From contig OZ245880.1 in the NCBI GenBank assembly GCA_965229495.1, forward strand, positions 2,141,012 through 2,205,011: 64,000 nt of DNA. The letters are read 5' to 3'. Made by a program: the position numbers and the translations under genes. A model generated the notes under the pieces. The model saw only the letters and a program-made list of their open reading frames with translations. It made no database searches and had not been told where the DNA came from. Below, piece after piece: positions 11,966 to 59,960 of the stretch. The stretch is from Gammaproteobacteria bacterium. GTDB lineage: Bacteria; Pseudomonadota; Gammaproteobacteria; CBDBNL01; G965229495. How positions within the stretch are numbered: the first letter of the stretch is position 1; each line of letters opens with the position of its first letter.

Positions 11966-12300
11966 CAGCTAGGATCACCTACTTGCACTCGGCCGGACTG
12001 AGACCGCCGACTTGTACTCGGCAGGTCCGATATCGCCAAGTTGTACTCGGCAGGGCTGGGATCGCCGAGTTGTACTCGGCAGGAGGCGCCCGCATGGGCG
12101 TCTCCCCAAAAGTACCGACTAACCCAAGACATCGAATTCGCTACTAGCTCGGTGCCCTGGAAGCGACCATATCGCCCACCGTGTAATAAGTGCCGTAACG
12201 GCTATTGGGCAACCAAGCTCACCTCAGCAACGAAGCTTGGTCGCGGCGGAGCGCCGAGTTGCACTCGGCAGGAGGCGAGCTTGCGAGCCTCCCCACCACA
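11966..12300. repeat. REP-like composite palindromic repeat cluster (locus 1 of 3)
   Basis: Several copies of CGCCGAGTTGTACTCGGCAGG (palindrome GCCGAGT-TGT-ACTCGGC) followed by GGAGGCGCCCGCATGGGCGTCTCC (a second palindrome). The same composite occurs at 19790-20075 and 59824-59960. Confidence 0.8.
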
Positions 12301-19789: not shown

Positions 19790-20075
19790 ATGGCTACTCC
19801 ATCAGCTCGGTGCTCCATCTTCCGTGCCGAGTGCAACTCGGTGCTCCTCCTAATTGGGAGACGCCCATGCGGGCGTATTCTGCCGAGTGCAATTCGGCGC
19901 TCCTAATTGGGAGACGCCCATGCGGGCGTCTTCTGCTGAGTGCAACTCGGTGCTCCTCCTAATTGGGAGACGCCCATGCGGGCGTCTTCTGCTGAGTGCA
20001 ACTCGGCGATCCTCCTAATTGGGAGACGCCTATGCGGGCGTCTCCTGCCGAGTACAACTCGGCGCTCCGGCTAGT
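19790..20075. repeat. REP-like composite repeat, tandem array of about 4 units (locus 2)
   Basis: Four consecutive units of about 58 bp: GGAGACGCCCATGCGGGCGTCTTCTGCTGAGTGCAACTCGGTGCTCCTCCTAATTG with minor variants. Opposite orientation to locus 1. Confidence 0.8.
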
Positions 20076-21552
20076 CTTGGGTTACGCGGAGGACTTCGCT
20101 GAGGCTGGTGAGGCCGTCTTGGGCGAGTTGGAAGCCGGTTTGGCGTAGGCTGGGGTTGAGTTTGCGCGCGTGCTCCTCTATGTCGAGTTCGGAGCCGTCT
20201 TCGTGGATGAGTTGGCGGATGTGTTGGTCGACGACTAATAGTTCGTAGATGCCGATGCGGCTAAGGTAGCCGGTTTGGTAGCAATGTTCGCAGCCTTGGG
20301 CTTCGTAGAGCGTTACTTGGCTCTCGGGGTCAAGCCCTAAGGTTTCGAGTTCGCTGCGGCTGGCGATGTAGCCTTTTTTACAATGAGTGCACAGGCGGCG
20401 CACTAAGCGCTGCGCGAGCACGGCTTGGACGGTGGAGGCTATGAGGAAGGATTCGACGCCCATGTCGCGCAGGCGGGTGATGGCGCCGATGGCGGTGTTG
20501 GTGTGTAAGGTCGAGAGCACGAGGTGGCCGGTGAGGCTGGCTTGCACTGAGATCTGCGCGGTTTCGCCATCGCGAATTTCGCCGATCATGACGACATCGG
20601 GGTCCTGGCGCAAGATGGCGCGCAGGCCGCGCGCGAAGTTCATGTTGGCGCGGGTGTTGACTTGCGTTTGCGATATGCCTTCGAAGTAATACTCAATAGG
20701 GTCTTCGACGGTCATGATGTTGAGCCGCTTGGAGTCCATTTCGCTCAAGCAAGCGTAGAGCGTGGTGGTTTTACCCGAGCCGGTGGGGCCAGTTACCAGA
20801 ATGACGCCGTGCGGGCGCGCGATCATCTGCTCGAGCTGCGTTTGCAGATTACTGGGCATGCCCAATTTATCGAGCACCAGGCGCGTGGCTTCTTTATCGA
20901 GCAGGCGCATGACGACGCGCTCGCCGTAAGCCGACGGGATAGTCGAGACGCGCATATCGATGGCACGGCCGCCGATACGCAAGCTGATGCGGCCGTCTTG
21001 CGGTACACGCTTCTCGGCAATGTCGAGCTTCGCCATGATTTTCACCCTTGAGACCATGCCCAGGGTGATCTTGCTGTCGGCGGTGAGGATGGTTTTCAAG
21101 ACGCCGTCGATGCGGAAGCGTACCAGTATCTGGCGCTCGTAGGGCTCCATGTGAATGTCGGACGCCTTTTCGCGCACGGCTTCGAAGAAGATGGCGTTGA
21201 TAAGGCGCGGGATGGGCGCGTTTTCGTTGGTGTCGTCGAGGATGTCGCCGGATTCGTCGACGGCGGCGCTGAGCTCGCTGAGGTCGGCTTGTTCGTCGAA
21301 GCTGAGGTTGCTGAAGACTTCGCTGGAGGAGGAGCCTTTGCCTTCGTAGTGCTTTTGCAGGAGGCTTTCGAAGGCGTCTTCCTCTATCTGCACTAGCGGC
21401 AGGCTGGAGCCGACGTAGCGCTGGATTTCATTGAGGATGGTGGTGGGTAGCTGCTCCTGGAAGAAGAGCTGGTAGTTGTCGCTGTCGATGTCGGTTACGC
21501 AGACGCGGTGGCGGCGCGCGTAGTCGTAGGGTAGGTCGTTGATAACATCCAT
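20071..21552 (-). CDS. gspE: Type II secretion system ATPase GspE
   Basis: 493 aa with N1 domain, Walker A GPTGSGKTT, Asp box, His box and the GspE-specific C-terminal tetracysteine (CTHCK...CEHC) zinc motif. Confidence 0.9.
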   Translation of the reverse strand: MDVINDLPYDYARRHRVCVTDIDSDNYQLFFQEQLPTTILNEIQRYVGSSLPLVQIEEDAFESLLQKHYEGKGSSSSEVFSNLSFDEQADLSELSAAVDESGDILDDTNENAPIPRLINAIFFEAVREKASDIHMEPYERQILVRFRIDGVLKTILTADSKITLGMVSRVKIMAKLDIAEKRVPQDGRISLRIGGRAIDMRVSTIPSAYGERVVMRLLDKEATRLVLDKLGMPSNLQTQLEQMIARPHGVILVTGPTGSGKTTTLYACLSEMDSKRLNIMTVEDPIEYYFEGISQTQVNTRANMNFARGLRAILRQDPDVVMIGEIRDGETAQISVQASLTGHLVLSTLHTNTAIGAITRLRDMGVESFLIASTVQAVLAQRLVRRLCTHCKKGYIASRSELETLGLDPESQVTLYEAQGCEHCYQTGYLSRIGIYELLVVDQHIRQLIHEDGSELDIEEHARKLNPSLRQTGFQLAQDGLTSLSEVLRVTQD

Positions 21553-23639
21553 TAATTGATAGCTTCGAGCAGATTGCTATCGCTGCTGGGGGCGTTGTCG
21601 CCAAAATCGAAGATCAAGGTGCTGCTGTCGAGCTTGCGTAGCACTGGGGCGTCGTCGAGCTTCAGCCAGTTGTCGAGCTCGGTGCGGGCGTTGAGTTGTT
21701 CGAGGCGCATGGCGTTGTATTTGCTATAGCTAAGGCTGGCGACCGAGGCGTCATCTTTAAGTATGCGCGGGCGCATGAACAGCATGAGGTTGGTTTTGTC
21801 GACGTTGTTGCTCTGCGATTTGAAGAGGTTGCCGATTATCGGGATATCGCCGAGTAGGGGGATTTTACGCGAGCTTTCCGATTGATTGTCCTGCATTAAG
21901 CCACCGAGGGCGATTAAACCGCCGTCGCGGACGTTGACGCTGGTTACGATCTTGCGCGTGCTGGTTACGACGTCGACGGCGTCGATGGTGTTGTCGGTAA
22001 CCGAGGAGATTTCCTGCTCCAAATCCATGCGGATCGAGTTGTCGCCGTTGATCTGCGGGAGTATTTTCAAAGCGATGCCGACGTCCTGGCGCTCGATGGT
22101 CTGGAATGGATCGCCGTCGCTGTCGGTGCTGCCGGTTACCACTGGGATGTTGTCGCCGACGACGAATTCGGCTTCCTGGTTGTCTAGGGTTACGATGTAG
22201 GGCGTGGACAGGATGTTGGTGTAGGCGTCGGTGTGTAAGGCTTTGACGAGAAAGCCCCAGCCCGAGCTCAGGTCGCTGCTGGCGCCGCCGATGCCGGTTA
22301 AGATGCCGCTGTTGGAGGCGTCGAGGATCGAGAGCGCGTCGAGGGTGCCGTCTTCGGTGGCGAGGCCGGCGAGGTTGCCGGTGATGTCGGCGGCGTAACC
22401 GCCAGCGGGACCGTAGATTAGCGAGTCGATGCCCAGCGAGCGGGTGATGGTGTTCGAGACTTCGGCGATGATTACTTCGATTACTACCTGCGCGCGCGGT
22501 AGGTCGAGCTGATTGATCAATACCATGACGGCATCGATGTATTCGCGCGGGCCGTTGATTATCAGCGCGTTCAGGTCTTCGTCGGCTTGGATGGTTACCG
22601 GGGCAGCGGCGCTGAGGTTGGTAGACGATGACGATGAGCTGGAGGGGGTGTCGGCGTTTTGGTTTTGCTGCTCGTTGTTACGCTGTTGGCGTTGCGCGGC
22701 TTGCTGGCGGACTTGCTCGGGGGCGTTGGCTGGGATGTTGGGCGCGCCAGACGATGAGCTGGCGCCGCTGATCGCGCCCGGGTTAAAGCCTTCTTCAGAA
22801 ATGATGCTTTCTAGCAGCGGGGCGAGGCGGTCGGCTTTGGCGAATTTCAAGTAGATGACTTTGACATTGCTGCTGCTCGGGAGCTCGACGTCGAGGTCGG
22901 CGATGAGCGCGCGGATGGCGCGGCGGATGTCAACCGGTGCGATAACTATTAACCTATTGGTGCGTTCGTCGACTTGGATGTCGATGTTCTTGAGCTTTTT
23001 GTAACTGGAATAGATCGCCATGACGATGGTTTTGATGTCGCTGGCTTGGGTGTAACGCAGGCCGATGATGTCGAGGTCGTCGGATTCGATGATGTCGACG
23101 CTGGCGATGATTCTTTTCAAACGCTCGATGTTGGCTCGGGTGTCGATGACCAGGATTTTGCTGTTGTTAGCTAGTGGTACCAACTGCGCTTGCTGCGACA
23201 TCAGCGGGCGCACGACGTTGACCACTTGGGTGGTGTCGACGTATTTGAGGGTGATGATTTCGTTGATGATTTCGGCGCTGGCAGCGCTGGGCTGACCCGC
23301 CGGCGCGAAGCTCTGCGCGACCTGCGCTGGCAGGATGCGGATGGCTTGGTCGGAGGGTACGGCGGTGTAACCGTAAACGTGCAAGATGGTGAGCAGGATG
23401 TCGTAAAGCGAGTTGGCGCCGACCGGTTCGGAGGCGATGAGGGTTACGCTACCACGGACTCGGGGGTCGATGAGGAAGTTTTTGCCGACCAGGCGCGCTA
23501 CGCTTTCGATTACTAGCACGAGGTCGACATTGCGGAAGTTGACCGAGAATAATTCTTCCTCGTCGCCGTCGTTGGCTTGCGCCAGGCTTAGGCTGAAGGT
23601 AAGCAGTAGTAGCAGCGTCAGCTTCGATATGTGCTTCAT
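21552..23639 (-). CDS. gspD: Type II secretion system secretin GspD
   Basis: Signal peptide, N0/N1-type domains (VNFRNVDLVLVIESVARLVGKNFLIDPRVRGSVTL) and a C-terminal secretin domain. Includes a Ser/Gln/Asn-rich low-complexity insert. ATG at 23639 overlaps the gspC stop (ATGA). Confidence 0.9.
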   Translation of the reverse strand: MKHISKLTLLLLLTFSLSLAQANDGDEEELFSVNFRNVDLVLVIESVARLVGKNFLIDPRVRGSVTLIASEPVGANSLYDILLTILHVYGYTAVPSDQAIRILPAQVAQSFAPAGQPSAASAEIINEIITLKYVDTTQVVNVVRPLMSQQAQLVPLANNSKILVIDTRANIERLKRIIASVDIIESDDLDIIGLRYTQASDIKTIVMAIYSSYKKLKNIDIQVDERTNRLIVIAPVDIRRAIRALIADLDVELPSSSNVKVIYLKFAKADRLAPLLESIISEEGFNPGAISGASSSSGAPNIPANAPEQVRQQAAQRQQRNNEQQNQNADTPSSSSSSSTNLSAAAPVTIQADEDLNALIINGPREYIDAVMVLINQLDLPRAQVVIEVIIAEVSNTITRSLGIDSLIYGPAGGYAADITGNLAGLATEDGTLDALSILDASNSGILTGIGGASSDLSSGWGFLVKALHTDAYTNILSTPYIVTLDNQEAEFVVGDNIPVVTGSTDSDGDPFQTIERQDVGIALKILPQINGDNSIRMDLEQEISSVTDNTIDAVDVVTSTRKIVTSVNVRDGGLIALGGLMQDNQSESSRKIPLLGDIPIIGNLFKSQSNNVDKTNLMLFMRPRILKDDASVASLSYSKYNAMRLEQLNARTELDNWLKLDDAPVLRKLDSSTLIFDFGDNAPSSDSNLLEAIN

Positions 23640-24589
23640 CACCAATTGATAGTAACGGTTTCGCTAACGCCGTCGCGCGTTAGCTCGATGTTGTAGGTGT
23701 CAGCGTTCAGTAATCCAGCCCAGAGCGCTGGCTGTGTAAGTAAGTCTTGGATGCTGTGGCCGTTGACGGCGGTGATGATGTCGCCGCTGCTAAAGCCCAG
23801 GCTGTTGAACAAGGCTTGGTTGACCCGTGGCTGCACGCGCATTCCGGATAGTTCGCCATCTTTCCGCACTTGCGAGAAGCGCACCATGTTGGCGACTTTC
23901 ACCGGCTCGGTGCGTAGCATTTTCTTGATCTCCAAGAGCTCGTTGGAGACTGTGCCTGGTAAGCTCGATAGGGGTTCGGTTGGGGCGGCTGCGACGTTGA
24001 CGTTGTCGGCAGTGCTCGGGGCGGGGGCGTTGGTGGGGGTGATCACCGAGCCGGCGTTGTCGTCGGTTTCTTCGGGGTTATAAGGCTTGATCGCGCCGCC
24101 GCCGAGGTTGAATTCGACCAAGCGCTCGGCTTCGCCTTCGGCGAGCAGGACGCCGTCGAGTTGCACTTGTTTTAAGTAAATATCGTTTTTCACCGTTTCA
24201 CCCACCAGGTAGGTTTGGGTGTTACCATCGACGCTCATGATGGCGATGGCTCTCTCGCCGCGACCCATTAAGCCAACGAGGCGGACGTTCAAGCGTTCGA
24301 GTTCGTTACTTCTTTTTACCGGCTCAGGCTCGGGTTCGGGCTCGGGTTGTGCTACTGGTTCGGCGCGGCGCGGTGGGCTGATGACGTTGTACTTGTCGAT
24401 CCAATTCCAGCTATTCAAGGGTGGGAGTTCGCGCGTGCTCGCCGGTGGTCGGAACACCGATGGTGCTTCAGCGACTTCGGGAAGCCAGTACTCGTCGACC
24501 AGCACCCAACTGAAGTGCGCGCCCACCACTGCGAAAGTGACGAGGGCAGAAAAGGATAAATAAGCACTCAGGCGCTCGAATAGCAGCAT
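23639..24589 (-). CDS. gspC: Type II secretion system protein GspC (PDZ-containing)
   Basis: N-terminal TM anchor, Pro/Glu-rich linker (PEPEPEPEP) and C-terminal PDZ-like domain. First in the gspC-D-E order. Confidence 0.75.
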   Translation of the reverse strand: MLLFERLSAYLSFSALVTFAVVGAHFSWVLVDEYWLPEVAEAPSVFRPPASTRELPPLNSWNWIDKYNVISPPRRAEPVAQPEPEPEPEPVKRSNELERLNVRLVGLMGRGERAIAIMSVDGNTQTYLVGETVKNDIYLKQVQLDGVLLAEGEAERLVEFNLGGGAIKPYNPEETDDNAGSVITPTNAPAPSTADNVNVAAAPTEPLSSLPGTVSNELLEIKKMLRTEPVKVANMVRFSQVRKDGELSGMRVQPRVNQALFNSLGFSSGDIITAVNGHSIQDLLTQPALWAGLLNADTYNIELTRDGVSETVTINW

Positions 24590-31319: not shown

Positions 31320-32969
31320 ATGGCCAAAGACACCAACAAACCCACATACCTCAACGACCACTGGACTCTCGACGATGGCCTTGGCTTTGGCGCCACCGCC
31401 GAGCAACTGGCGCGGGTAGCCTTGCAAGCGCAGCCGCCGTTCACGGTAGCGCTCACCGGCAAATGGGGCGCGGGCAAAACCAGCGTCTTGCGCCAAGCCT
31501 TCGCTACCCTCGGTGGTGAGCCCATAGCCCAAGCTTTGCCTTTTGGCGAGCCATTGAGCGATAGAGCCTTCAACCAAAACATTCGGGAGATGTGGAAGAA
31601 GCTATCATACTTTGGCACCAAGTCGGGCGATAAATCTAAGCTAACAGAAGAGCAGCTCGAATTGGGCAATTTAGCCGAGCGCTGCCTGTGCGTTTGGTAT
31701 TCGCCCTGGCAACACCAGCAAGCCGATAACCCGCTATTGCCATTGCTGCTAGAGATTAAGAAGCAATACAGTATCTGGGCGAAGTCAAAGAAAATAACTT
31801 CTGATGTTAGTAAGAGTAGCGGACGGGTAGGCCTAACTCTGCTGGAGAAAGTTATCGACGCTAGCATAAGCATAGCCGCTCGTAATCAGGTACAGCTAGC
31901 CTCGGGCACCAGCGCTGAAGTTGCCCAAGCTTGGCAAGGCAACAAATCTGAACTGGAGCAACTTAGCGATGGTCAGCGCTTTCACCTGATATTCGAGGAA
32001 GCGATAGAAACTTTATTGCGCAGCAGAAAGGGTAGAGCAAAGTTAGACGAAGGTGCCCGCCTAATAATATTCATCGACGACCTCGACCGCTGCGAGGAGA
32101 GCGTTATCGTGCAATTGCTCGAAAGCATTAAGCTTTATTTGCATAGCCAGCGCTGCGTCTTCATCCTCGGCATAGACCCTGACGCCGTGCTCGGTGCCCT
32201 AAAGCGACATTGGAAAGAGCGCTCGGAGCAGAGCAACGCCGAGTACTTGGAAAAGCTAGTGCAAGCGCAGCTTGAAGTGCCGCAGCCAGCGATACAGCTA
32301 ATACGAAATTTGATAGAGACGCAACTTAGTGATCACGACATACCCATAGAAGCGCCAGCTACCGAGGAAACTAATGGCGACAAGGATCAAGCCAAAGACA
32401 CCGACAACCAAATAGCTGACTTACCCACCATGCTCGAGGAGTTGCTGGAACCCAACCCGCGCAAAATCAAGAATTTTCTCAACAGTCTCAGTGGTCAATG
32501 GCACTTACTTCCCCGAGGCGAGCGCCCCGAGCACGCTCACCTATTCGCGCTCTTCCACTATTTGCGGCTGTATCATCGCCCAGTCTGGCGTTTGCTTAGT
32601 CATCAAAATTGGGTGCTGGAACTGCTGTATCGAGTTTTAATCAAATCCGACGCAAAGCTTGGTCTTATTCCCGATGATTACCCAAGTTTCTCAGACGAAC
32701 AAGCCATAGCCAGCGAGATGCTAGCGCGCGCTTTCAGCCACGTGCTAGCCGATAACAGTGATGCTGCCACTGCCGAGCGCCAGCACCGCAATATGCCTTT
32801 GGAAAAGGCGGTGCTATTATTCACTGAGAGGCTGGACCGTAAGCGTTCGGATCAATGCTTTATCAAATATCTGCGTAAGCTGGTGCTATCCGATGATGCC
32901 GAAAGCAGCAAAGCTGCCAAACTACTCTTGCAACGAATGAATCAAGCCCGCGATGATAGCCCAGCGTAG
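31320..32969 (+). CDS. KAP-family P-loop NTPase
   Basis: Walker A GKWGAGKTS, then after about 200 residues the KAP-specific Walker B IIFIDDLDRCEE. WYSPWQHQ segment after the P-loop. No predicted TM insert. Lower GC than the flanking deoA/upp. Confidence 0.8.
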   Translation: MAKDTNKPTYLNDHWTLDDGLGFGATAEQLARVALQAQPPFTVALTGKWGAGKTSVLRQAFATLGGEPIAQALPFGEPLSDRAFNQNIREMWKKLSYFGTKSGDKSKLTEEQLELGNLAERCLCVWYSPWQHQQADNPLLPLLLEIKKQYSIWAKSKKITSDVSKSSGRVGLTLLEKVIDASISIAARNQVQLASGTSAEVAQAWQGNKSELEQLSDGQRFHLIFEEAIETLLRSRKGRAKLDEGARLIIFIDDLDRCEESVIVQLLESIKLYLHSQRCVFILGIDPDAVLGALKRHWKERSEQSNAEYLEKLVQAQLEVPQPAIQLIRNLIETQLSDHDIPIEAPATEETNGDKDQAKDTDNQIADLPTMLEELLEPNPRKIKNFLNSLSGQWHLLPRGERPEHAHLFALFHYLRLYHRPVWRLLSHQNWVLELLYRVLIKSDAKLGLIPDDYPSFSDEQAIASEMLARAFSHVLADNSDAATAERQHRNMPLEKAVLLFTERLDRKRSDQCFIKYLRKLVLSDDAESSKAAKLLLQRMNQARDDSPA

Positions 32970-35900
32970 CGCCTACGAGCATAACCTCTTTCTACTCGAA
33001 TTAGCGCGCTGCGAGCGCTGGCTGCGGCGGCGCCACGGTCGTTTATTTGGCTTGCTCGAAGCCGACGAAGACGAAGTCGAAAGATACCCCATCAGCTTGC
33101 GGCATATATTCGTGCCCATGCGCCTCGACACCAAGGACTTAGCCGACGAGGAGGTTGGCAAAGGCCAAGCTCTAGATGCAGAGCAACCACCGGGGCAAGA
33201 CGCTTGGGAAGTGCTCGCCGAGCACAGCTTCGCAATCATCTCTGGCCGCCCGGGTAGCGGCAAGAGCACGCTGATGCAAGCCATAGTGCTCGAGCTTTGT
33301 GGCGAGCGCCCAAGCGAGCTACGCAATAAGCTTTACAAAGATGCGCCTGGAGTAACTGTGCTACCCATCGTCTTGCGCGAGCTGGAAAATATCGATCAAA
33401 TACAAGACTGGCGCCAACTGCTCGACTCTTGGTGGGCGCTAATTGAGCGTGATTCTAACGCAGATAATTATCCACTATCGATTCTAGAACTGCGAGAGCG
33501 CTTAGAGCAAAGGGAGCTTGAGCGCAACTATACAGTATTGCTATTGCTCGACGGCATTGACGAAGTTGGTAGCAATGCGGCGCGTGAGCGCTTGGGTGAT
33601 ATGGCTGAGCAAATACACGATGAACTCGGCTACCGTGTAATAATCACTGGCCGCCCGGTTGGCGTGCAAGATTTGCGTATTACCAAACCGTCGAACAGAT
33701 TACCTATCAAACTACCCCACAAGTTGAGCGATCAACCACCAGCGCAGACTTTCTACCTACAACCGCTGATCGGCGCGCAAATTACCTTATTTATAGACAA
33801 GTGGCTAAACGCGCGCCCCGATTGGCGCCGCGAAAAAGCGCATTTGCAGCGTAGTTTTAACGAAGCGCTGCATAGCGCGCGCGGCGAGCATTTGCTCAAG
33901 CTGGTGCGGCGACCAATATTCCTGACGCTGATGGCGCTGGTGCACTGCTCCTCCAAGCAAATGCCCGACGGTCGCGCCCAGCTCTACGCCAAAATTATCG
34001 ACCTGTATCTCAACCGCCAAGAAAAGCACCGCCGCTTACGCCTCCGCAAAGGCGATGGTTCTCTCCCCAATTGGCGCGACTCGGAGAAACGCGCCGTGCT
34101 CGGCTATATCGCTTGGCGCAGCCAGATGCAACGTGGCAGACAAGAAAATAGCTCTGATAAAAAAGACAGCTTTATCTGGCGGCGCGATGAATTATTGACG
34201 GTGATCGAGCAACAGCTCTCCAGCCGCAAATATGGTCGCTTTAGCTCAATCAAAGTAGAGGACGCAGACGACTTACTCAATTACTTCTTGCAGCCCGCCG
34301 GTTTGCTGATAGAGCCCGCCGAGCAGCGCTTGCAATTCTCGCACCTGAGCTTTCAAGAATATCTTTGCGCTGACTTTATCAATACCACTCTAAGCGGCGG
34401 CGACTTGCGTTATGCTTTCGAGGGACATTTGCTACCGAATCTTGATCGACCAGGCTGGGGCGAGGTTGGCTTGCTACTACTGGCGATTTTGCAAGCGGCA
34501 GACAATAGCAGTCATCTGCGCGCTATGGCGTGGCTCGATCCCAGTAATGCTACTCAAGCGCAACTGCTGGTAAAAGCGCTCAGCGGTGGTGAGCTTGGCT
34601 TTCGTGCTGAGGAAAACGCTGCCGACCTTGCCGACTGGGCGTCGCTAGCGCTGGCTTGCTGTCTCTTGCACCCGAGAAGAGAATTGGGTTCAGAGCTAGC
34701 GCAAAATCCACAATTGCGTGCGCCCGCACTGAAGCTACTGGAGCAGCTATTCGGACTAGAGCCCAGCGCTTGTATGGAGTATTTAGGCAAGCACATCGCT
34801 GAGCACACACCTTGGGGCATGAATAAGAGTGACGTTAAACGCATCGCTCGGTCTATAGCTAAGCGTTGGAGCAATCCCAAGGACGACAATAGTTGGGATG
34901 CCGGTTTTGGCGCCTATGAAGCTCGCGCCCACGCGCTGCTGGCGCTACTCAATTCCAGCGCTTGGTTAGCTCCTGAGGAGAAAGATCCTTACCTGCCTAT
35001 CGCCGAATCTGGCTGGCAGGAGCGCTTGGCGGCTTGGCTGCGGCAAGTAGTTTCCACTACAGGCGATCCCCTTTGGCAGCGCGACGAGGATAAATTGCCA
35101 GAGATAACTTATGCAGCGTTAGAGCTCGACACACTTATACCCGCAACCGGTTCGCTCTATAAAGCCACGCTTGAGCGCCTGCCGCTTGATGCCCTGCTGC
35201 TGCAGGGTGAAGCCTATGACGACTCTGACTATGGTGAATTCAGCCAGCCTACTATATTGCTAGCAATACAAGCGCGAGAAGTCCCTCCAGTACGCAGCCG
35301 CCTCGCGCTCGTATTCTATCAAGCGTTGCTACTCATCGAGCACTGCAGGCAAGATGCAATTTTTCTGGACTTGTTGCAGTTGCGGTCGTGGGCATTGGCA
35401 TGGTCGCGGGCGCAGGAGCGGTCGCGGACGCAGGCGTGGTCGTGGACGCGGGCGCGGGCGCGGTCGTGGGCGCAGGCGCGGGCGCGGGCGCGGTCGTGGG
35501 CGCAGGCGCAGGAGCGGGCGCGGTCGCAGGAGCAGGAGTGGGAGCAGGAGCAGGATTGGGAGTGGGGGCGGATGCTGGCGCAGGAGCAGGAGTTGGAGCG
35601 GATGGTGGCGCAGATCCAGGTGCGGGAGCTATTAGAGGATACTACTTTTAGCTCGGCGCTAACAGTAGCTACCAGACAGAGCCTAGAAAAAGCTGTGCAA
35701 ATAGATGATGACAAAATAAGCGATGAGCAACTAGCTGTCTGGGTGCCAGTGCTAGAAAACTACTGCTACCGCTGGGCGGCGCTGGATTGGTTTCGCGAGC
35801 AGAGTGAAGATGTGGGCTTGGCGCAGCGGCGCGGGATTAGGGATAAGCAGCCATTGCCCGCCGAGCTTGGATTGTTTGACGCTGAGGGTATGCCGCTACC

Positions 35901-36180
35901 GACGCCGCAGCGCGCTAACGTCGAGCGCTTGCTGGAATGGCTGGAAGACGACGAGCGTGTGATAGCTTTTGGCGCTGCTGACGCTAGCGCCGAAGAGTTA
36001 GAAATCATCCGCGCCGACCTCGACATTCTTCGTAATCAACCCTGGTCGCCCGCCAACTTCGTCCGCGCCATCCTCGCCGACTGGCCAGCAGACCAACCTA
36101 CCATGGACTGCAGCCTTGCCGCCGCCGACGCCGAACTCGGCAAACAATCCGAGCTGCTGCTAACAGCAGTCAAAAGCTAA
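32953..36180 (+). CDS. NACHT/STAND-family NTPase (NLR-like), 1075 aa
   Basis: Walker A IISGRPGSGKSTL, Walker B LLLLDGIDEV and a downstream helical/winged-helix region. Overlaps the KAP gene by 17 nt. Has a repeat-encoded low-complexity linker and an uncharacterised ~180-aa C-terminal domain. Confidence 0.8.
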   Translation: MIAQRSAYEHNLFLLELARCERWLRRRHGRLFGLLEADEDEVERYPISLRHIFVPMRLDTKDLADEEVGKGQALDAEQPPGQDAWEVLAEHSFAIISGRPGSGKSTLMQAIVLELCGERPSELRNKLYKDAPGVTVLPIVLRELENIDQIQDWRQLLDSWWALIERDSNADNYPLSILELRERLEQRELERNYTVLLLLDGIDEVGSNAARERLGDMAEQIHDELGYRVIITGRPVGVQDLRITKPSNRLPIKLPHKLSDQPPAQTFYLQPLIGAQITLFIDKWLNARPDWRREKAHLQRSFNEALHSARGEHLLKLVRRPIFLTLMALVHCSSKQMPDGRAQLYAKIIDLYLNRQEKHRRLRLRKGDGSLPNWRDSEKRAVLGYIAWRSQMQRGRQENSSDKKDSFIWRRDELLTVIEQQLSSRKYGRFSSIKVEDADDLLNYFLQPAGLLIEPAEQRLQFSHLSFQEYLCADFINTTLSGGDLRYAFEGHLLPNLDRPGWGEVGLLLLAILQAADNSSHLRAMAWLDPSNATQAQLLVKALSGGELGFRAEENAADLADWASLALACCLLHPRRELGSELAQNPQLRAPALKLLEQLFGLEPSACMEYLGKHIAEHTPWGMNKSDVKRIARSIAKRWSNPKDDNSWDAGFGAYEARAHALLALLNSSAWLAPEEKDPYLPIAESGWQERLAAWLRQVVSTTGDPLWQRDEDKLPEITYAALELDTLIPATGSLYKATLERLPLDALLLQGEAYDDSDYGEFSQPTILLAIQAREVPPVRSRLALVFYQALLLIEHCRQDAIFLDLLQLRSWALAWSRAQERSRTQAWSWTRARARSWAQARARARSWAQAQERARSQEQEWEQEQDWEWGRMLAQEQELERMVAQIQVRELLEDTTFSSALTVATRQSLEKAVQIDDDKISDEQLAVWVPVLENYCYRWAALDWFREQSEDVGLAQRRGIRDKQPLPAELGLFDAEGMPLPTPQRANVERLLEWLEDDERVIAFGAADASAEELEIIRADLDILRNQPWSPANFVRAILADWPADQPTMDCSLAAADAELGKQSELLLTAVKS
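35385..35615 (+). repeat. Intragenic GC-rich tandem repeat (30-bp unit GCGGGCGCGGGCGCGGTCGTGGGCGCAGGC and degenerate copies)
   Basis: Visible direct tandem copies. Encodes in-frame SWAQARARAR / EQEWEQEQDWEW low-complexity protein sequence. Produces spurious RG- and GA-rich ORFs in other frames. Confidence 0.8.
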
Positions 36181-46832: not shown

Positions 46833-48266
46833 ATGGATATATCCCTTATAGATCAGCTACCGAGGCGCCCGAGTTGCCTGATATTGCTACCGACTTCGGT
46901 GGCAGAATCGGCTCGCTTGGCGCGCGAATTGTCTATGCCCAGCCTGAGCGAATCCGCTTTCAGCGAAGACGGCACCCCGGACGCGCGCCTCTACATCAAC
47001 AGCATCGGCCAAAACATCGTCGTCAGCCCGCAGCTGAAAAAAGACGATACCAGCCTCCGCACCGCGCTCGACCAAGCCATACGCTTGGTGTTGCTCGGCA
47101 AGTACCCAGAGGCGCTGTTGATAGCCGAGAACAAAGACACTAAGAACCTGCTAACTATCATCGCCCGCAGCGTCGCCGATAACTCTTACATATTCGACAA
47201 GTACAAATCCAAAGGTCGCCGCACTATAGCCTTGAAAAAACTGCAGATCTACACTGGGCGCACCAATACGCCCATGGACCACGGACAACTCCAAGACCAG
47301 ATCATCGTCAACCAGGGCGTCGAGTACGCGCGCGACCTTGCTAATACTCCGCCCAATATTTGTAACCCCGAATGGCTGGCGGCGGCGGCGCTACAGCTCG
47401 GGCGCGAATCGCGCGGCTTGAACGTCGAAGTCCTGGACGACGTCGCGCTACGTATCGAAAGCATGAACGCCATGCTGGCAGTAGCTGGCGGTAGCGCCAA
47501 TAAGCCGCGCCTGCTGCTGATCAACCATAAAGGTTTGGGCACTAATCGGCGACCGATAGTGCTAATAGGCAAAGGCGTTACTTTCGACACTGGCGGCATC
47601 AGCCTCAAGCCTCCAGCCAAGATGGACGAAATGAAGTACGACATGTGCGGCGCCGCAGCGGTCATAGCCACCATGAAGGTTTTGGATATGCTGCAAGTCA
47701 AGCTCAACGTTACTGCCATCGTGCCCTGCGTCGAGAATATGCCCTCGGGCACGGCCTATCGCCCGGGCGACATCATCACCACCAAGCTCGGCAAGAGCGT
47801 CGAAGTGCTCAACACCGACGCCGAAGGCCGCCTCATCCTCGCCGACAGCATAACCTTCGCCGAGCGCTATAACCCCTTGCAAATAATAGACGTGGCAACG
47901 CTAACCGGCGCCTGCATCGTCGCCCTCGGGCGCCATCTCAGCGCGATGTACAGCAACAACGACCAACTGGCTGAATCTCTGCTCAGCGCTGGCGCTAACA
48001 GCTTGGATAGTATTTGGCGGATGCCTCTAGGCGCCGATTATCACCGCCAGCTCAAAAGCAACTTCGCCGACCTTGCCAACATCGGCGGCCCGGAAGCAGG
48101 ATCGGTTACTGCTGCCTGCTTCCTGGAGAGCTTTGTCCCCGAGAAAACGCCCTGGGCGCATTTGGACGTCGCTGGCACAGCTTGGGTTAGCGGCGCCAAA
48201 AAAGGCGCCAGCGGCAGACCCACGGCGCTACTCTCCCAGTATTTGCTTGACCTGAGTCGGGTCTAG
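46833..48266 (+). CDS. pepA: Leucyl aminopeptidase (M17)
   Basis: NTDAEGRLILAD M17 signature, VTFDTGGISLKP, and an N-terminal regulatory domain. Confidence 0.9.
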   Translation: MDISLIDQLPRRPSCLILLPTSVAESARLARELSMPSLSESAFSEDGTPDARLYINSIGQNIVVSPQLKKDDTSLRTALDQAIRLVLLGKYPEALLIAENKDTKNLLTIIARSVADNSYIFDKYKSKGRRTIALKKLQIYTGRTNTPMDHGQLQDQIIVNQGVEYARDLANTPPNICNPEWLAAAALQLGRESRGLNVEVLDDVALRIESMNAMLAVAGGSANKPRLLLINHKGLGTNRRPIVLIGKGVTFDTGGISLKPPAKMDEMKYDMCGAAAVIATMKVLDMLQVKLNVTAIVPCVENMPSGTAYRPGDIITTKLGKSVEVLNTDAEGRLILADSITFAERYNPLQIIDVATLTGACIVALGRHLSAMYSNNDQLAESLLSAGANSLDSIWRMPLGADYHRQLKSNFADLANIGGPEAGSVTAACFLESFVPEKTPWAHLDVAGTAWVSGAKKGASGRPTALLSQYLLDLSRV

Positions 48267-48749
48267 GCGCCATCCGCGCTGGATCAGCACCACGCAGTGC
48301 GCGGCGATGCCAGCGCCAGCGCCGAGGGCGCCGATGCCTTCGGCGGTGGTGGCTTTGATGTTGACGTCTTCAGGTTTGAGCTCACTAAGCTCGGCCAGCT
48401 TCTCACGGATGGCTTGCTTATAGCCACCGAGCTTCGGGCTTTGCAGGATTATGGTGGCGTCTATGTTTAATGGGGCGAGATTGCGCTCGGCCAATAACTC
48501 CAGGCAATGGTGCAAAAAAAAAGCGCTGCTTTTGCCGCTGTATTGCGGGTCGCAATCGGGAAAATGCTCGCCGATATCGCCCAGAGCAGCGGCGCCGAGC
48601 AGGGCATCGCAGAGCGCGTGGATGAGCACGTCGCCGTCGGAATGCGCGCGCACGCCTTTATCATGGTCTATGCGAACTCCGCCCAGCCAGAAATGATCGC
48701 CCTCGGTGAAAGCATGGCAATCGTAGCCGTGACCGATGCGCGGCGACAT
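48228..48749 (-). CDS. ispF: 2-C-methyl-D-erythritol 2,4-cyclodiphosphate synthase
   Basis: RIGHGYDCHAF ... HSDGDVLIHALCDALLGAAALGDIGEHFPD, nearly colinear with E. coli IspF. Confidence 0.9.
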   Translation of the reverse strand: MSPRIGHGYDCHAFTEGDHFWLGGVRIDHDKGVRAHSDGDVLIHALCDALLGAAALGDIGEHFPDCDPQYSGKSSAFFLHHCLELLAERNLAPLNIDATIILQSPKLGGYKQAIREKLAELSELKPEDVNIKATTAEGIGALGAGAGIAAHCVVLIQRGWRLDPTQVKQILGE

Positions 48750-48753: not shown

Positions 48754-49422
48754 TTAAGCCGAGGAAGTTTTAGCCATCAGCGCCTCGTTAGTGGCGAGCA
48801 TCTGCTTGCGCGCCAGCAGCAAATGCCAGTTGCGACCGCCGTGGTAGTGCCAAGCTAAGGCAGCGCGGATGGCAGCGAGCAATAGCGCGCGCGCCGTGCT
48901 CGACACGTTGGGGTTATTGATGTGCTTATTGGCGCCGGATATTTTGATGCGGTTGCGCTGCGGGAGATTGCTCAAGGTGTCGGCGTAAATCGCCGAAATC
49001 TTGAGGATAGTATTGGTCTGCACTCGGGTGCGCGCGTTCAGGCTTTGGTCGAGCTCGAAGATTTTGCCGTGGATCTCCGCTAGTAAATCGCGGTTACGGC
49101 GCAAATAGGCGCTGAGCTTCATAATCTGCGTGACTATGGGGAACAGCGGCTTGACCTGCTCGCTATTGCCGCTCAAGAAGTTATGCGTCTGCTCGAAGGC
49201 CGGCAGCATTTGCTGCAAAGGGTAGGCTTGCTGCATGTCGCCAGAATCGAAGACAAATAGCGATTTGGTGTAGAGCTTGGTGCGCGCCGTGTCCTTGGTG
49301 CCTTCCCACAAGAGCTTGTTGACCAAATTGGCAATGTCGATTACGGCGGCGAAGACGAAGCCGCGCTGCTGCAGCGCGTCGGGCTCGTTGGCTGGCTCTG
49401 GTGCTACGGGATCGGTGCTCAT
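48754..49422 (-). CDS. hflD: High-frequency-lysogenization protein HflD-like
   Basis: 222 aa. C-terminal LLAAIRAALAWHYHGGRNWHLLLARKQM parallels E. coli HflD [28 protein letters not shown]. Confidence 0.65.
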   Translation of the reverse strand: MSTDPVAPEPANEPDALQQRGFVFAAVIDIANLVNKLLWEGTKDTARTKLYTKSLFVFDSGDMQQAYPLQQMLPAFEQTHNFLSGNSEQVKPLFPIVTQIMKLSAYLRRNRDLLAEIHGKIFELDQSLNARTRVQTNTILKISAIYADTLSNLPQRNRIKISGANKHINNPNVSSTARALLLAAIRAALAWHYHGGRNWHLLLARKQMLATNEALMAKTSSA

Positions 49423-54039: not shown

Positions 54040-55932
54040 ATGAACATCTTGAAATCGCACAAACTCGCCCTACTGGCGCTGGCGCTAGTAGCAATAGTCG
54101 CCATCACTATCGTCAATAGCAGCCTCTCGCGGGCTAGGGTTGATTTAACCGCCGATAAGGTTTTCACCGTCTCCGAGGGCGCGCGCAACTTCTTAGGCGC
54201 GCTCGAGCAAGAGGTCAACCTAACGCTGTATTTCTCGGCCGAGAACACCCGCGACATCGTGCCGCTGCGCACCTACCGCCAGCGCGTGGTCGAGCTCATA
54301 GAGGAATACGTGTTGCTGGCGGGCGGCAAGCTCAACTTCGAGGAGATCGACCCGCAGCCGTTCTCGGTGCAAGAAGACGCCGCTAACGCCGCTGGCATCA
54401 ACGCTGTAGCCATTAACGAAGGCAAGCCCGATATATTCTTCGGCCTCAATAGCACTTCCGCCACCGGGCAGCAATCGATCGGCTTCTTGCACCCGCAGCG
54501 CGAGCAATTGCTGGAGTACGACATCAACGATCTCATCTACCAATCCTTGAGCCCCGACAAGCCCAAGATCGGTCTTATAACCGCGCTGGGTGTTGACGGT
54601 GGTTACGGCCAAGGCGGCCCCATCGACCCTTGGACTGTGCACGATCAACTCGCTTTGAGCTTTACAGTGGAGAAATTAGTCGGCGACCTGGAGGCCATAC
54701 CCGAAGACCTGGACGCGCTAGTGCTGATTCACCCCAGCGATATGGGCGCGCAAAACCTGTATCTCATCGATCAATACGTGCTCGGCGGCGGCAAGCTCGT
54801 GGCTTTCTTAGACCCTTACGCCGAGCAAGCCAACCCCATGATCTCGGGCAGCTTCCCGGTAACGCAAGAATCGGTTAGCCCGTTGCAAGAATTGCTCGCC
54901 ACTTGGGGCGTGAGCATCGCCACTGACGAGATAGTGGTCGATGGCCAGCACGCGATGGCGGTCAACTTCAACGGCCGAGCGCAGCGCCACCCAGTGCTAC
55001 TGAACTACGAGCGCGCCAGCCTCGATAGAGAAGACCCGATCAGCGCTAACCTCAACCGCCTGCTGCTATCGTCTTCGGGTTACATCCAAGCGCAAGCCGA
55101 CACCAGCCTCAACGTTACACCATTGCTCAGCACCAGCGCCGACACTGGGGTGATCAAAGCTGCCGACTACTCGATATCGGATTTGGAAGCCAACTTCCGG
55201 AATATAGAGCTGCGCGGCGAGCCCTACATCTTGGCGGCGCGCATCAGCGGCCAAGCCGAGAGCGCCTATCCCGATGGTGTAGAGATCGAAGTCGAAGTCG
55301 CGCAGGACGCCAACGCTAGCGACGACAGTAACGCCAGCGCCGAGCCCGTGGTTGAAACCGAGATCTTCCAGCATGAAAATGCTCTGACCAACGGCGCCAT
55401 CAACGTCTTCCTGGTCGCCGATACTGATCTGCTCAGCGATAGGCTCTGGGTCAACAAGCAGAATTTCTTCGGCCAAGTGCTCACCAGCCAGTTCACCGAT
55501 AACAACGACCTGCTGCAAAACATCGTCGCCTCGTACACTGGCAGCGACGATCTGATAGGCATCCGCGGCCGCCAGCCCTACGCGCGCTATTTCGATAGGG
55601 TTGAGGACTTACGCAAAGACGCCGAGCAGCGCTTGCGGCAAAAGCAGGAGGAATTGCAGCTGCGCTTGCAAGCCACCGAGGACAAGATCAACGAGCTGCA
55701 AAGCCAGCGCGACGCCAACGAGACCGTAGCCCTAACCCCCGAGCAGCAAGCCGCCATAGCTCAATTCAGCAAAGAGCGCTTGGAGATTCGCAAGCAGCTA
55801 CGCGAAGTGCGCTATCAGCTCGACCGCGACATCGAGAGCCTGGGGATGCAAGTGAAGCTGGTGAATATCGCCTTAGTGCCGCTGCTAATAGTGCTCTTCG
55901 CGCTCTTCCGCCACTGGCTGCGGAGGCGGTAG
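54040..55932 (+). CDS. ABC transporter auxiliary component (GldG-like, N- and C-terminal TM anchors)
   Basis: N-terminal TM (LALLALALVAIVAITIV), large extracytoplasmic domain, a coiled-coil and a C-terminal TM (LVPLLIVLFALF). Confidence 0.7.
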   Translation: MNILKSHKLALLALALVAIVAITIVNSSLSRARVDLTADKVFTVSEGARNFLGALEQEVNLTLYFSAENTRDIVPLRTYRQRVVELIEEYVLLAGGKLNFEEIDPQPFSVQEDAANAAGINAVAINEGKPDIFFGLNSTSATGQQSIGFLHPQREQLLEYDINDLIYQSLSPDKPKIGLITALGVDGGYGQGGPIDPWTVHDQLALSFTVEKLVGDLEAIPEDLDALVLIHPSDMGAQNLYLIDQYVLGGGKLVAFLDPYAEQANPMISGSFPVTQESVSPLQELLATWGVSIATDEIVVDGQHAMAVNFNGRAQRHPVLLNYERASLDREDPISANLNRLLLSSSGYIQAQADTSLNVTPLLSTSADTGVIKAADYSISDLEANFRNIELRGEPYILAARISGQAESAYPDGVEIEVEVAQDANASDDSNASAEPVVETEIFQHENALTNGAINVFLVADTDLLSDRLWVNKQNFFGQVLTSQFTDNNDLLQNIVASYTGSDDLIGIRGRQPYARYFDRVEDLRKDAEQRLRQKQEELQLRLQATEDKINELQSQRDANETVALTPEQQAAIAQFSKERLEIRKQLREVRYQLDRDIESLGMQVKLVNIALVPLLIVLFALFRHWLRRR

Positions 55933-55974
55933 GTTCAGGGATTTACGCGCGATACTAGCGTCTGAGTGTGCGTT

Positions 55975-56004
55975 CGTCTGTGGTTATACTATTAACCACA
56001 GACG
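55975..56004 (+). terminator. Perfect 12-bp stem hairpin after the gldG-like gene
   Basis: CGTCTGTGGTTA-TACTAT-TAACCACAGACG. No clear U-tract, so it may be a terminator or an operator. Confidence 0.35.
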
Positions 56005-56237
56005 GATGTAATTGGGTGGGTTAGGTAGAGGGGGCAGAATAAACTCGAATACGCTGTCGGAAAATTAATATTTGCCAAGAGCATATATTTAGCTTAATAG
56101 CAAGTTAATTCAGTGATATAACAGTTTAACGCAGAGCTGCCGAGCGCTATTTTTTATACACTCGGGCAATTTTGTTATTATTCCTGACCGAGCTTTGTGT
56201 TATTATCTTTGCAATTTCAAAATTGATGGTTGACACC

Positions 56238-56666
56238 ATGGCAGCAAGAAAAAAGATCGATTTAACCGAACTAAGCGTAGATGAATTGCAGAGCTTGCAG
56301 GAAAAGCTCAACAGTCATCTTGAAAACCTCAAGCAGATAATGCGCGTGCGCGAGGAAGTTATCAAAAAAGTCCTCAAGAATTCCGACGTTAAAGCTATTT
56401 GCAAGCACTACAACTTCGACATCAATTATTTATTCAATCCCCCTAGCGACCAGGACGTCGCCGCCAGCGGCGGCAAAGTCAAAAAGCGCGCCAGCTCCAG
56501 GCGCATGGCTTCGGTCGAAGTGCTGAAACCCAAGAAGAAGCGGGTAGTATTGCCCAAATACCGCCTACCCACCGGCGAGACTTGGTCGGGCCGCGGCTTG
56601 ATGCCAAAAATATTCACGCGCTACATGGAGCGCGGCGGCAAATTGGAGGATGTCGCGATTAGGTGA
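56238..56666 (+). CDS. H-NS-family nucleoid-associated DNA-binding protein
   Basis: N-terminal coiled-coil (LQSLQEKLNSHLENLKQIMRVREE) and C-terminal DNA-binding motif TWSGRGLMPK (compare H-NS TWTGQGRTP). AT-rich upstream region. Confidence 0.75.
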   Translation: MAARKKIDLTELSVDELQSLQEKLNSHLENLKQIMRVREEVIKKVLKNSDVKAICKHYNFDINYLFNPPSDQDVAASGGKVKKRASSRRMASVEVLKPKKKRVVLPKYRLPTGETWSGRGLMPKIFTRYMERGGKLEDVAIR

Positions 56667-58677: not shown

Positions 58678-58782
58678 GGGAGCGTCGTGTCGAGTAAGTT
58701 TTTTTCTGCCCGCATAGTTGTCAGCGGCGCTGCAAGTGGCGTAAAATCTCCCGCATTGCGCTAGCCATGCGAGGAAAAAGCG

Positions 58783-59823
58783 ATGAAAATCAATGTTCTA
58801 CCCCCCCCCCCCCCCCCCCCCCCCCGCGCGCATAAATTACTGATTATAGTAAATATTTTTGCGTTTTTGTTATCTTCTTGCTCCGATGGCGACGATGACA
58901 CTTTACTAAGCCCGCTACCCAACGACTTCACGGCAACAGCAAGCGATAGCCAGGTAACTCTGAGTTGGACGCAACACCCAGAAGCGACCTACAGCCTTTA
59001 CCACAGTAGCGACTCCAGTTGTGATATGAGCAACTACAGCCTCTGCAGCGATGGGGCTATGTTCACTAGTAAATCCTCGGGCTTCGTCGACGCTGGCTTG
59101 ACCAACGGCACTACTTATTACTACTGGATCGAATCCATACTCGATGGCATTACTTTTTTTGATGAGCAAGCTATCAGCGCTACTCCCAGAGCTGATAGCA
59201 GTATTGATTTAAGCAATGGCTTAATAGCTCATTATGAATTTGAAGGCAATGTCAATGACAGTAGTGGTAACGGTAATGACGGAGAGGTATTTGGCGACAT
59301 TAGTTACATTGATGGAGTAATAGGCCAAGCCATACATTTTGGTAATAGTAACGTCTACATCGCTATTAAAAGTAACTTCACGCTAGACGACTTCAGCATC
59401 GCTTTTTATGGGAAAGTCGATGCGCAAAGTAGCGCTAAGATTAATTTGTTGCAAGCGAATCAGAGTCACTCAGATAATATCTTCGGTCTTGCTTACGATA
59501 GCGACTTTGCCTATTTACTGCACAACAGCCAGACTACCAATTCACAGCACTATTACGATCTGTTAGTTACTGAATGGGCGAATTTTGTTTTGCAGCCAAA
59601 TGGTGTCGGTGGTTTTGATATTTATCTCGATGGTAATAAGGCGATAACTTTTTACCTTGCTCTAGAGGAAATGCTATTCGAGTATATAGTTCTGGCTCAG
59701 GGCTGTTTCGGGGAATGTTTTACTAGCGAGCAAAACTTAACTGGTAGCCTTGACGATTTGCGCATCTACAACCGCACCCTCAACGCAGAAGAAATACAAG
59801 CGCTTCGGATCGCCGAGTTGTAA
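58783..59823 (+). CDS. Lipoprotein with FN3-like and LamG/concanavalin-like jelly-roll domain (low-GC)
   Basis: Signal peptide with lipobox LLSSC. N-terminal poly-Pro encoded by a C25 tract. VTLSWT ... TYYYWI FN3-like segment, then LamG-like region. The last codons are supplied by the REP element. Confidence 0.6.
   Translation: MKINVLPPPPPPPPRAHKLLIIVNIFAFLLSSCSDGDDDTLLSPLPNDFTATASDSQVTLSWTQHPEATYSLYHSSDSSCDMSNYSLCSDGAMFTSKSSGFVDAGLTNGTTYYYWIESILDGITFFDEQAISATPRADSSIDLSNGLIAHYEFEGNVNDSSGNGNDGEVFGDISYIDGVIGQAIHFGNSNVYIAIKSNFTLDDFSIAFYGKVDAQSSAKINLLQANQSHSDNIFGLAYDSDFAYLLHNSQTTNSQHYYDLLVTEWANFVLQPNGVGGFDIYLDGNKAITFYLALEEMLFEYIVLAQGCFGECFTSEQNLTGSLDDLRIYNRTLNAEEIQALRIAEL
58801..58825 (+). repeat. 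Homopolymeric C25 tract inside the coding sequence
   Basis: 25 consecutive C directly counted (58801-58825), in-frame (PPPPPPPP) within the signal-peptide region. Confidence 0.9.
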
Positions 59824-59960
59824 GGATCGCCGAGTTGCATGGAGCGCCGAGTTGTACTCGGCAGGAGACGCCCGCATGGGCGTCTCCCCATTCGGAACGC
59901 CTATGTGCAGTTTGCATAGAGACGCCCCATCAACCGCAGTGGCAGGGGACTCGCAAGCTC
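59824..59960. repeat. REP-like composite palindromic repeat (locus 3)
   Basis: GATCGCCGAGTTG..CGCCGAGTTGTACTCGGCAGGAGACGCCCGCATGGGCGTCTCC plus the related AGAGACGCC half-site. Same family as 11966-12300. Confidence 0.8.

Follow-up and report, generated by a model that had tools for sequence, protein, structure and literature searches.

The window analysed here is a stretch of 64,000 nucleotides (nt) from an uncultured environmental gammaproteobacterium (contig OZ245880.1, positions 2,141,012 to 2,205,011 of the forward strand), and our subject is a lipoprotein gene next to recA whose signal-peptide coding region holds a long run of cytosines (poly-C). An earlier note, made from the sequence alone, had picked out this run as a candidate slipped-strand switch. 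The open reading frame (ORF) of the gene, at 58783-59823 on the plus strand, encodes 346 amino acids (aa), as that note had stated; its translation starts MKINVLPPPPPPPPRAHKLLIIVNIFAFLLSSC, and its N-terminus can be written MKINVL-P8-RAHKLLIIVNIFAFLLSSC. The 90% identity cluster of the lipoprotein has 13 members of 111-346 aa, whose N-termini diverge precisely at the tract. We compared 12 alleles, namely that of the window, which comes from a separate genome assembly, and those of 11 cluster members (L001 to L011), all from the ENA metagenome assembly ERZ25074195. The features of the locus, with their conservation in these haplotypes, are as follows.

58718-58747, plus strand: candidate sigma-70-like promoter, TTGTCA-18 nt-TAAAAT, with 10 of 12 consensus matches; the sequence is kept in 12 of 12 haplotypes
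58767-58769, plus strand: ATG1, read from the sequence, present in 12 of 12 haplotypes, with no Shine-Dalgarno sequence before it
58771-58775, plus strand: Shine-Dalgarno sequence GAGGA, 7 nt upstream of ATG2 and kept in 12 of 12 haplotypes
58783-58785, plus strand: ATG2, the putative main start (MKINVL..., the ON frame), with a 343-346 aa product in 6 of 12 alleles
58793-58795, plus strand: ATG3, the start codon of the third frame (MFY-Pro(n)...), found in three haplotypes (window, L002 and L005); the other nine have ACG
58801-58825, plus strand: poly-C tract, C25 in the window and C6-C30 elsewhere, read as Pro in every frame
58826-58831, plus strand: (GC)3 dinucleotide repeat abutting the poly-C tract, with 1, 2 or 3 units in other haplotypes; it co-sets the frame
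58831-58881, plus strand: rest of the signal peptide from the translation, comprising His-Lys, the hydrophobic core LLIIVNIFAFLL and the lipobox LSSC (nonsynonymous divergence, dN, 0; synonymous divergence, dS, 0.09)
58833-58835 (TAA) and 58841-58843 (TGA), plus strand: stops in the two alternative frames right behind the repeat, read from the sequence
58783-59823, plus strand: the lipoprotein gene, with an FN3-like domain at ~58915-59187 and a LamG/ConA-like domain at ~59215-59802 (translation, Pfam, AlphaFold and Foldseek)

The interval 58801-58825 proved to hold exactly 25 consecutive C, as claimed. These had been read as eight prolines; 24 of the C do encode the eight prolines (Pro7-14), and the 25th is base 1 of Arg15 (CGC). 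C25 and (GC)3 together make up codons 7-17 of the ORF from the ATG at 58783, and the repeat thus lies inside the reading frame. The claim that so long a homopolymer is rare also stood: with a C frequency (fC) of 0.289, about 4e-9 runs of at least 25 C are expected in 64 kb on both strands, the second-longest C run of the window has 6 C, and among the other bases no run is longer than A9. The GC content of the window, previously put at about 60%, is 56.9%, and the low-GC patch described at this position was recovered, with about 39-50% GC (~42%) in the lipoprotein gene versus a 57% background. Eight CCC codons in a row have a probability of about 5e-4 given the codon usage of housekeeping genes and, because CCC makes up only 38% of their Pro codons, the pure C run reflects a repeat at the DNA level. 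The same codon usage, together with the variation of frame between alleles, makes selection for polyproline as such unlikely.

Around the repeat, the N-terminus has by inspection the make-up of a lipoprotein signal, with charged residues at K2 and at R15/H17/K18, a hydrophobic core of 12 residues (LLIIVNIFAFLL) and the sequence L-S-S-C33, which matches the pattern [LVI][ASTVI][GAS]C. The lipobox that had been proposed was thus found where expected, with Cys33 at 58879-58881. This signal-peptide pattern is kept in all alleles, and the mature protein would have 313 residues.

The three ATGs of the window lie in three different frames, each open into the tract, and both ATG1 and ATG3 are without a suitably spaced Shine-Dalgarno sequence. 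With n as the number of C and m as the number of GC units, the gene body is in frame with ATG2 when (n + 2m) mod 3 = 1, and the ATG1 frame is open when the summed length of C run and GC repeat is a multiple of 3 ((C + GC-repeat length) mod 3 = 0). Half of the 12 alleles (window, L001, L004, L005, L006 and L011) are in frame with ATG2 and yield products of 343-346 aa in silico, and the remaining six meet a stop 9-17 codons after ATG2, likewise in silico. Among these six, ATG3 could serve L002, L003 and L009 fall into the frame of ATG1, and L007, L008 and L010, which have ACG at ATG3, have no start codon in the open frame. Gene callers took ATG1 as the start of the predicted proteins P0118 and P0119 (MRGKSDENQRSTPP...) and ATG3 as that of P0117; as annotated, three out-of-frame alleles begin at alternative upstream ATGs and three are N-terminally truncated (265 or 318 aa), a warning for anyone who relies on annotation at such loci. 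The earlier note had expected a slip of +/-1 to turn the gene ON or OFF. That tract length sets the frame was borne out, but with window ATGs in all three frames the OFF state is perhaps not clean, and in the window strain such a slip may only lower or alter initiation.

Other roles for the tract were considered and rejected. Translation is not expected to start downstream of it, since there is no ATG, GTG or TTG from the tract to the hydrophobic core; the single TTG farther on would give MLSSC without a signal peptide, and purifying selection on the core, described below, favours entry from upstream. A position in a promoter spacer, as in transcriptional phase variation, was set aside because the whole of the best promoter-like site precedes the tract. 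Tract-length-dependent mRNA structure was likewise set aside, as the folds predicted for C6-C30 leave the tract unpaired and the fold is unchanged from C9 to C30.

The eleven metagenomic alleles lie on separate contigs of 18-585 kb with 12-105x coverage, and the gene order recA - lipoprotein gene - rnfH is found in all eleven haplotypes. About 35 further contigs carry the recA of this species, beyond the 12 alleles compared. The repeats read as follows.

Window: C25, (GC)3
L001: C20, (GC)1
L002: C22, (GC)2
L003: C7, (GC)1
L004: C20, (GC)1
L005: C21, (GC)2
L006: C20, (GC)1
L007: C6, (GC)1
L008: C30, (GC)1
L009: C9, (GC)3
L010: C21, (GC)1
L011: C21, (GC)2

The haplotypes are separated by 14-190 substitutions per 3.1 kb, and unbroken tracts of C20-C30 are kept in lineages up to ~6% apart in their flanking DNA. 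We compared insertions and deletions (indels) over about 6 kb, made up of 3.1 kb around and upstream of the tract, the 990-nt gene body and 1.8 kb of ratA-ftsZ downstream. Non-repeat indels in this interval are few and either shared by groups of haplotypes (in intergenic DNA or at gene ends) or private to L002, and ten contigs have no private indel outside the repeat. The T7 runs at 58699 and 59154 are constant across haplotypes. L002 (ERZ25074195 ctg39467, 17.8 kb) has eight private 1-nt insertions in 3.1 kb, which alter how the genes for GBBH-like and MoaE proteins are called; its consensus seems chimeric or insufficiently polished, and its C22 is not to be trusted. L003, L007 and L010 have the same pattern of polymorphic sites from ~150 bp upstream to 280 bp downstream, yet have C7, C6 and C21. 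Because these three match locally and differ in the number of C, we conclude that the repeat mutates at a much higher rate than the DNA around it. A tract length that is the same in all isolates had been named beforehand as the outcome that would count against a switch; we observed the opposite, C6-C30 in 12 haplotypes.

The same data bear on the explanation that the tract is a sequencing or assembly artefact, such as a miscalled homopolymer or a poly-G/C artefact of the reads. Long-read platforms err mainly in homopolymers, the contig names resemble those of a long-read metagenome assembler, and L002 has eight private 1-nt insertions. Against this, the tract is embedded in unique sequence in 12 contigs, which belong to two independent assemblies, its lengths of 6-30 range far beyond errors of +/-1-2, the neighbouring (GC)n varies too, and ten contigs have no private indel in ~6 kb. 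Length also tracks haplotype, with C7 and C6 in L003 and L007 and three alleles sharing C20(GC)1. We give this explanation almost no credence: an artefact is excluded for the existence of the tract and for the large differences in length, and differences of +/-1 between long alleles lie within possible consensus error.

The ORF behind the repeat is under purifying selection. Its pairwise dN/dS is 0.13, versus 0.004 for recA, and remains at 0.04-0.23 in pairs that include out-of-frame (OFF) alleles. The hydrophobic region and lipobox have dN = 0 and dS = 0.09 across 10 alleles, with no amino-acid change, and because synonymous change has accumulated there without any replacement we conclude that ribosomes enter from upstream of the tract and translate the stretch immediately after it as signal peptide. 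The 330-codon ORF behind the repeat is uninterrupted in all ten insertion-free alleles, including the out-of-frame L007, L008 and L010. As the ORF is intact and dN/dS is low in pairs with OFF alleles, the out-of-frame alleles are not old pseudogenes. Among long-tract alleles, 6 of 9 are ON versus 1/3 expected (binomial P = 0.04, an indicative value).

Two alleles are disrupted by insertions, L003 (C7) and L009 (C9), both with short tracts, compared with none of the nine long-tract alleles. The insert of L003 (~3660-3801, within the gene) is 142 nt long and AT-rich, with what appear to be imperfect inverted repeats at its ends and an 8-nt target duplication (ATTTATTG); it looks like a miniature inverted-repeat transposable element. 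In L009, an insertion sequence with a DDE transposase (DDE_Tnp_1) lies inside the lipoprotein gene at 3494-4765. L007, the remaining allele with a short tract (C6), is out of frame. From this distribution, functional alleles seem to keep long tracts, and collapsed tracts to be associated with locking and decay; as L003 is closely related to L007, only about two independent collapse events are represented.

These observations bear on the explanation by a neutral, hypermutable microsatellite in a dispensable, horizontally acquired and decaying gene, in which the OFF alleles would be early pseudogenes. Such a history would suit the low GC of the gene, its nearest homologues outside the species (only 34-37% identical, and from Campylobacterota), the mobile-element insertions that break 2 of 12 alleles, the downstream spacer as an insertion hot spot, and the placing of half of the alleles outside the main frame. 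It sits poorly with a dN/dS of 0.13 and a signal-peptide core unchanged despite dS = 0.09, both with OFF comparisons included, and with long-tract OFF alleles that have no secondary lesions. It also leaves uninterrupted tracts of C20-C30 kept across ~6% flank divergence to be explained, as well as disruptions that occur only in alleles whose tract has collapsed to 7-9 C. We regard this explanation as improbable.

A second alternative is that, with Pro encoded in every frame and start codons in all three, the protein is made in all states and tract length acts as a rheostat, tuning either its amount (through start-site efficiency and through stalling on polyproline near the start codon that depends on elongation factor P, EF-P) or the length of the n-region of the signal peptide. 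RNA polymerase, too, may slip on a run of 20-30 nt. Ribosomes stall at consecutive prolines, and the number of Pro varies among the in-frame alleles (P7 vs P8). The ATGs at 58767, 58783 and 58793 each lead into the tract in an open frame, the gene callers gave full-length products from ATG1 and ATG3, and in licA alternative start codons are known to be used. Yet ATG3 is ACG in 9 of 12 haplotypes, ATG1 lacks a Shine-Dalgarno sequence, and both alleles in the ATG1 frame are also disrupted by insertions. The bias of long tracts towards the frame of the Shine-Dalgarno-preceded ATG (6/9) is unexpected if frame is irrelevant, and the predicted mRNA structure is independent of tract length. A rheostat seems to us quite improbable.

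The explanation that we consider probable, judging from the arrangement and variation of the sequence, is that the tract is a translational contingency repeat, a simple-sequence repeat within the coding region of the lipoprotein signal peptide. The repeat is in frame, its polymorphism exceeds that of background indels, and its frame determines whether the product is full-length or a peptide of 9-17 aa; these are the sequence features by which contingency loci are recognised. The slipped-strand switch proposed in the earlier note thus gains support from the range of C6-C30 with (GC)1-3, the quiet flanks, the frame set by length and the intact ORFs under selection. We infer slippage as the mutational process, its reversibility, the use of ATG2 and a benefit in fitness or ecology.

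On such a contingency repeat, the locus would work as follows. Transcription would start probably from the promoter near 58718-58747, and ribosomes would bind GAGGA and initiate at the ATG at 58783; only by reading across C(n)(GC)m would they arrive at the core, the lipobox and the mature protein of 313 residues. Slipped-strand mispairing during replication would add or remove C (and GC units). Tracts with (n + 2m) mod 3 = 1 would give the full lipoprotein; at other lengths translation would end at the TAA at 58833 or the TGA at 58841, with no lipoprotein from the main start. The ATG at 58767 (in all strains) and that at 58793 (in a minority) could open full-length ORFs in the other two frames, which, without a well-placed Shine-Dalgarno sequence, are expected to be OFF or weakly ON. 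The outcome would be a population heterogeneous for a surface or periplasmic lipoprotein with FN3 and LamG (lectin-like) domains. Plausible benefits are escape from recognition by phages or grazers, or modulation of adhesion, and transcriptional slippage on the long run and EF-P-dependent stalling on polyproline are conceivable modifiers.

A more elaborate form of this proposal is a three-state switch (a strong Shine-Dalgarno-ATG state, weak states from the other ATGs, and off), in which a C(n)(GC)m repeat of 20-30 nt and starts in three frames would give polyproline of variable length in each state and would be maintained by selection in a free-living gammaproteobacterium with coexisting ON and OFF lineages. 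We think this possible but on balance doubtful. If true, it would mean that contingency loci shape population structure beyond host-associated pathogens, for example under phage pressure.

Several points weigh against a contingency repeat. A single sample supplied 11 of the 12 alleles, and all of the evidence for variation lies between haplotypes in assemblies. The long-read consensus of homopolymers of 20-30 nt can err by +/-1, which is exactly the step that decides between ON and OFF. ATGs in the other frames, together with possible slippage of RNA polymerase, could make expression partly insensitive to frame. Over all alleles the ON bias (6/12, P = 0.18) is not significant, and the haplotypes are not independent, so that this and the other P-value are indicative only. 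About 1.8 sites as good as TTGTCA-18-TAAAAT are expected per region, which makes the promoter call weak when taken alone. Lastly, the 64-kb window has one such tract and no sign of a genome-wide phase-variable set.

The layout is that of a well-known kind of locus, found here in an uncultured environmental gammaproteobacterium, and four systems invite comparison. In the sialidase gene nanH3 of Gardnerella piotii, a poly-C tract of C8-14 lies just after the signal peptide; the number of C differs among strains and also inside a strain, a short truncated peptide results from most lengths, and the within-colony variation is experimental (bioRxiv 10.1101/2020.09.16.300947). Both loci have a C homopolymer at the 5' signal-peptide end of a gene for a secreted, surface-tethered protein, and at both, pipelines call N-terminally truncated genes in out-of-frame genomes (here of 265 and 318 aa). 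The present tract differs in its length of 20-30 C and in lying inside the n-region, before the hydrophobic core, whereas nanH3 belongs to a Gram-positive vaginal bacterium and encodes a sialidase rather than a lipoprotein. Variation in nanH3 was shown experimentally within colonies; here it is known between assembled haplotypes.

In Neisseria, pilC and other translational phase-variable genes with poly-G/C have tract ranges of G(9-20) and G(9-21) (PMC5953494). As in pilC, we find an in-frame G/C homopolymer in a proteobacterial gene for a surface structure, with ON/OFF switching by frameshift in prospect, and the length ranges overlap. The pilC tract is reported to lie in the signal-peptide coding region (Jonsson et al. 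1991). Neisseria differs in having dozens of loci per genome, compared with one in 64 kb here, in a modal tract of 9-10 rather than ~21, and in being a host-restricted pathogen rather than an uncultured environmental gammaproteobacterium; the proteins share no homology.

The closest parallel for the start codons is licA (lic1) of Haemophilus influenzae, where a 5'-CAAT repeat is combined with multiple initiation codons whose usage was verified phenotypically (PMC2212159). In both cases several ATGs, not all in one frame, stand shortly before the repeat, the number of repeat units selects the start, if any, that is in frame, and more than two states can arise. The licA repeat is a tetranucleotide and ours a homopolymer; licA has starts in two of three frames, compared with all three in the window strain and two in most sister haplotypes; and licA encodes a cytoplasmic choline kinase. 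Start usage at the present locus is predicted. In Bifidobacterium breve, G-tracts of 10-12 nt lie in sortase-pilin genes whose expression needs the right tract length (PMC9187656). These share with our locus an intragenic G/C homopolymer between the Sec signal and the rest of a surface-protein precursor, outside the classical pathogens; they differ in belonging to a Gram-positive gut commensal and in that the gene is the first of a pilus operon. What is distinctive here is the length of the tract (mode ~21, up to 30), its position in the n-region, the adjoining GC repeat, the starts in three frames and the host.

To our knowledge, work on phase variation by simple-sequence repeats has centred almost wholly on host-adapted pathogens and commensals. 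The locus described here would be a clear example from an uncultured environmental gammaproteobacterium, in which a single long-read metagenome captures about a dozen coexisting lineages with ON, OFF and decayed alleles. With this locus one can ask if natural communities use contingency switching, for instance against phages or grazers to which a lectin-like surface lipoprotein serves as a recognition target.

The earlier note had also described the mature protein as carrying FN3 and LamG-like domains. The LamG-like domain was confirmed by Pfam Laminin_G_3 (PF13385), which matches residues 189-339 with 44 bits against a cut-off of 27.6. For FN3 the outcome was mixed: PF00041 scores 13.9 bits for residues 40-140 (cut-off 25, E = 0.065), a weak, sub-threshold match, but AlphaFold2 predicts a confident beta-sandwich at residues 45-135, with a predicted local distance difference test (pLDDT) score of ~90 in a model with a mean of 77. 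The relatives P0007, P0023 and P0064 have precomputed PF00041 matches. The model also has a beta jelly roll at residues 145-340, and the best PDB matches by Foldseek are to the lectin-like N-terminal subdomain of clostridial neurotoxin binding domains (E = 6e-12).

We searched for relatives in several collections. No named NCBIfam family fits the lipoprotein, an exact look-up of the protein of the window gave no entry, and the GTDB representative genomes, which do not include that of the window, contained no close relative, only LamG homologues with 24-37% identity; the few higher identities in that search are to segments under 70 residues. The assembly accession gave no hits in the literature. 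In JGI metagenomes, a DNA pattern search returned no further alleles, and a protein scan returned only homologues of up to ~35% identity over comparable lengths. The RecA protein is 73-76% identical to sequences named Thioalkalivibrio, Thiohalomonadaceae and Thiotrichales, which places the organism in the Gammaproteobacteria.

A recognisably homologous lipoprotein leader, MKNKALNLPYKLLIILSIFAILPAC, occurs in two more distant relatives, P0004 and P0005. It has one Pro at the site of the tract, and the bodies of these two proteins differ, being composed of PKD-like, FN3 and LamG domains. This suggests a modular family of lipoproteins with a common leader, in which the tract grew by expansion at one Pro codon.

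The lipoprotein gene is preceded by genes for H-NS-like, GBBH-like_N and MoaE proteins and by recA, which ends at 58677, upstream of the promoter candidate, and is followed by rnfH, a ratA-like gene, ftsZ and ftsA. Rfam gave no match at the lipoprotein locus. At the 3' end of the gene lies the repetitive extragenic palindromic (REP) element that had been noted there.

59807-59887, plus strand: REP-like element overlapping the lipoprotein stop codon, with three 17-nt direct repeats and a perfect 10+10 palindrome

Its identification was upheld by the palindrome GGAGACGCCC-N4-GGGCGTCTCC, which occurs six times in the window against 0.01 expected and here reads GGAGACGCCC-GCAT-GGGCGTCTCC at 59864-59887. 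The 17-nt repeats (GGATCGCCGAGTTGTAA and variants) stand three in tandem at 59807-59857 and span the stop codon, so that the last residues of the lipoprotein (..RIAEL) are encoded by the first copy. The element is probably the end of the transcript and forms context rather than a part of the switch. The palindrome also occurs at 12082-12105 and at 19857-20045, where four copies stand in tandem with a period of 53-56 nt, and each tandem unit has a second hairpin, GCCGAGTGCAACTCGGYG.

Across the haplotypes, the lipoprotein gene forms an insertion hot spot together with the spacer that separates it from rnfH. In L011, an IS110-family transposase gene lies at 4231-5241 and the spacer measures 1553 nt instead of 167 nt; in L007, an unannotated ORF of 212 aa occupies 4028-4666 of the spacer.

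Elsewhere in the window, genes for the GspE ATPase and the GspD secretin of type II secretion lie at 20071-24589, and these could be relevant to surface display of lipoproteins. The A9 run, the second-longest homopolymer of the window, is at 48514-48522, intergenic between 46833-48266 (plus strand) and 48754-49422 (minus strand). A second low-GC patch at 55900-56500 (38-45% GC) covers the promoter and the 5' part of the H-NS-like gene (56172-56666). Adjacent genes at 31320-36180 encode a KAP-family P-loop NTPase (549 aa) and a NACHT/STAND NTPase of 1075 aa, which may be an anti-phage defence pair.

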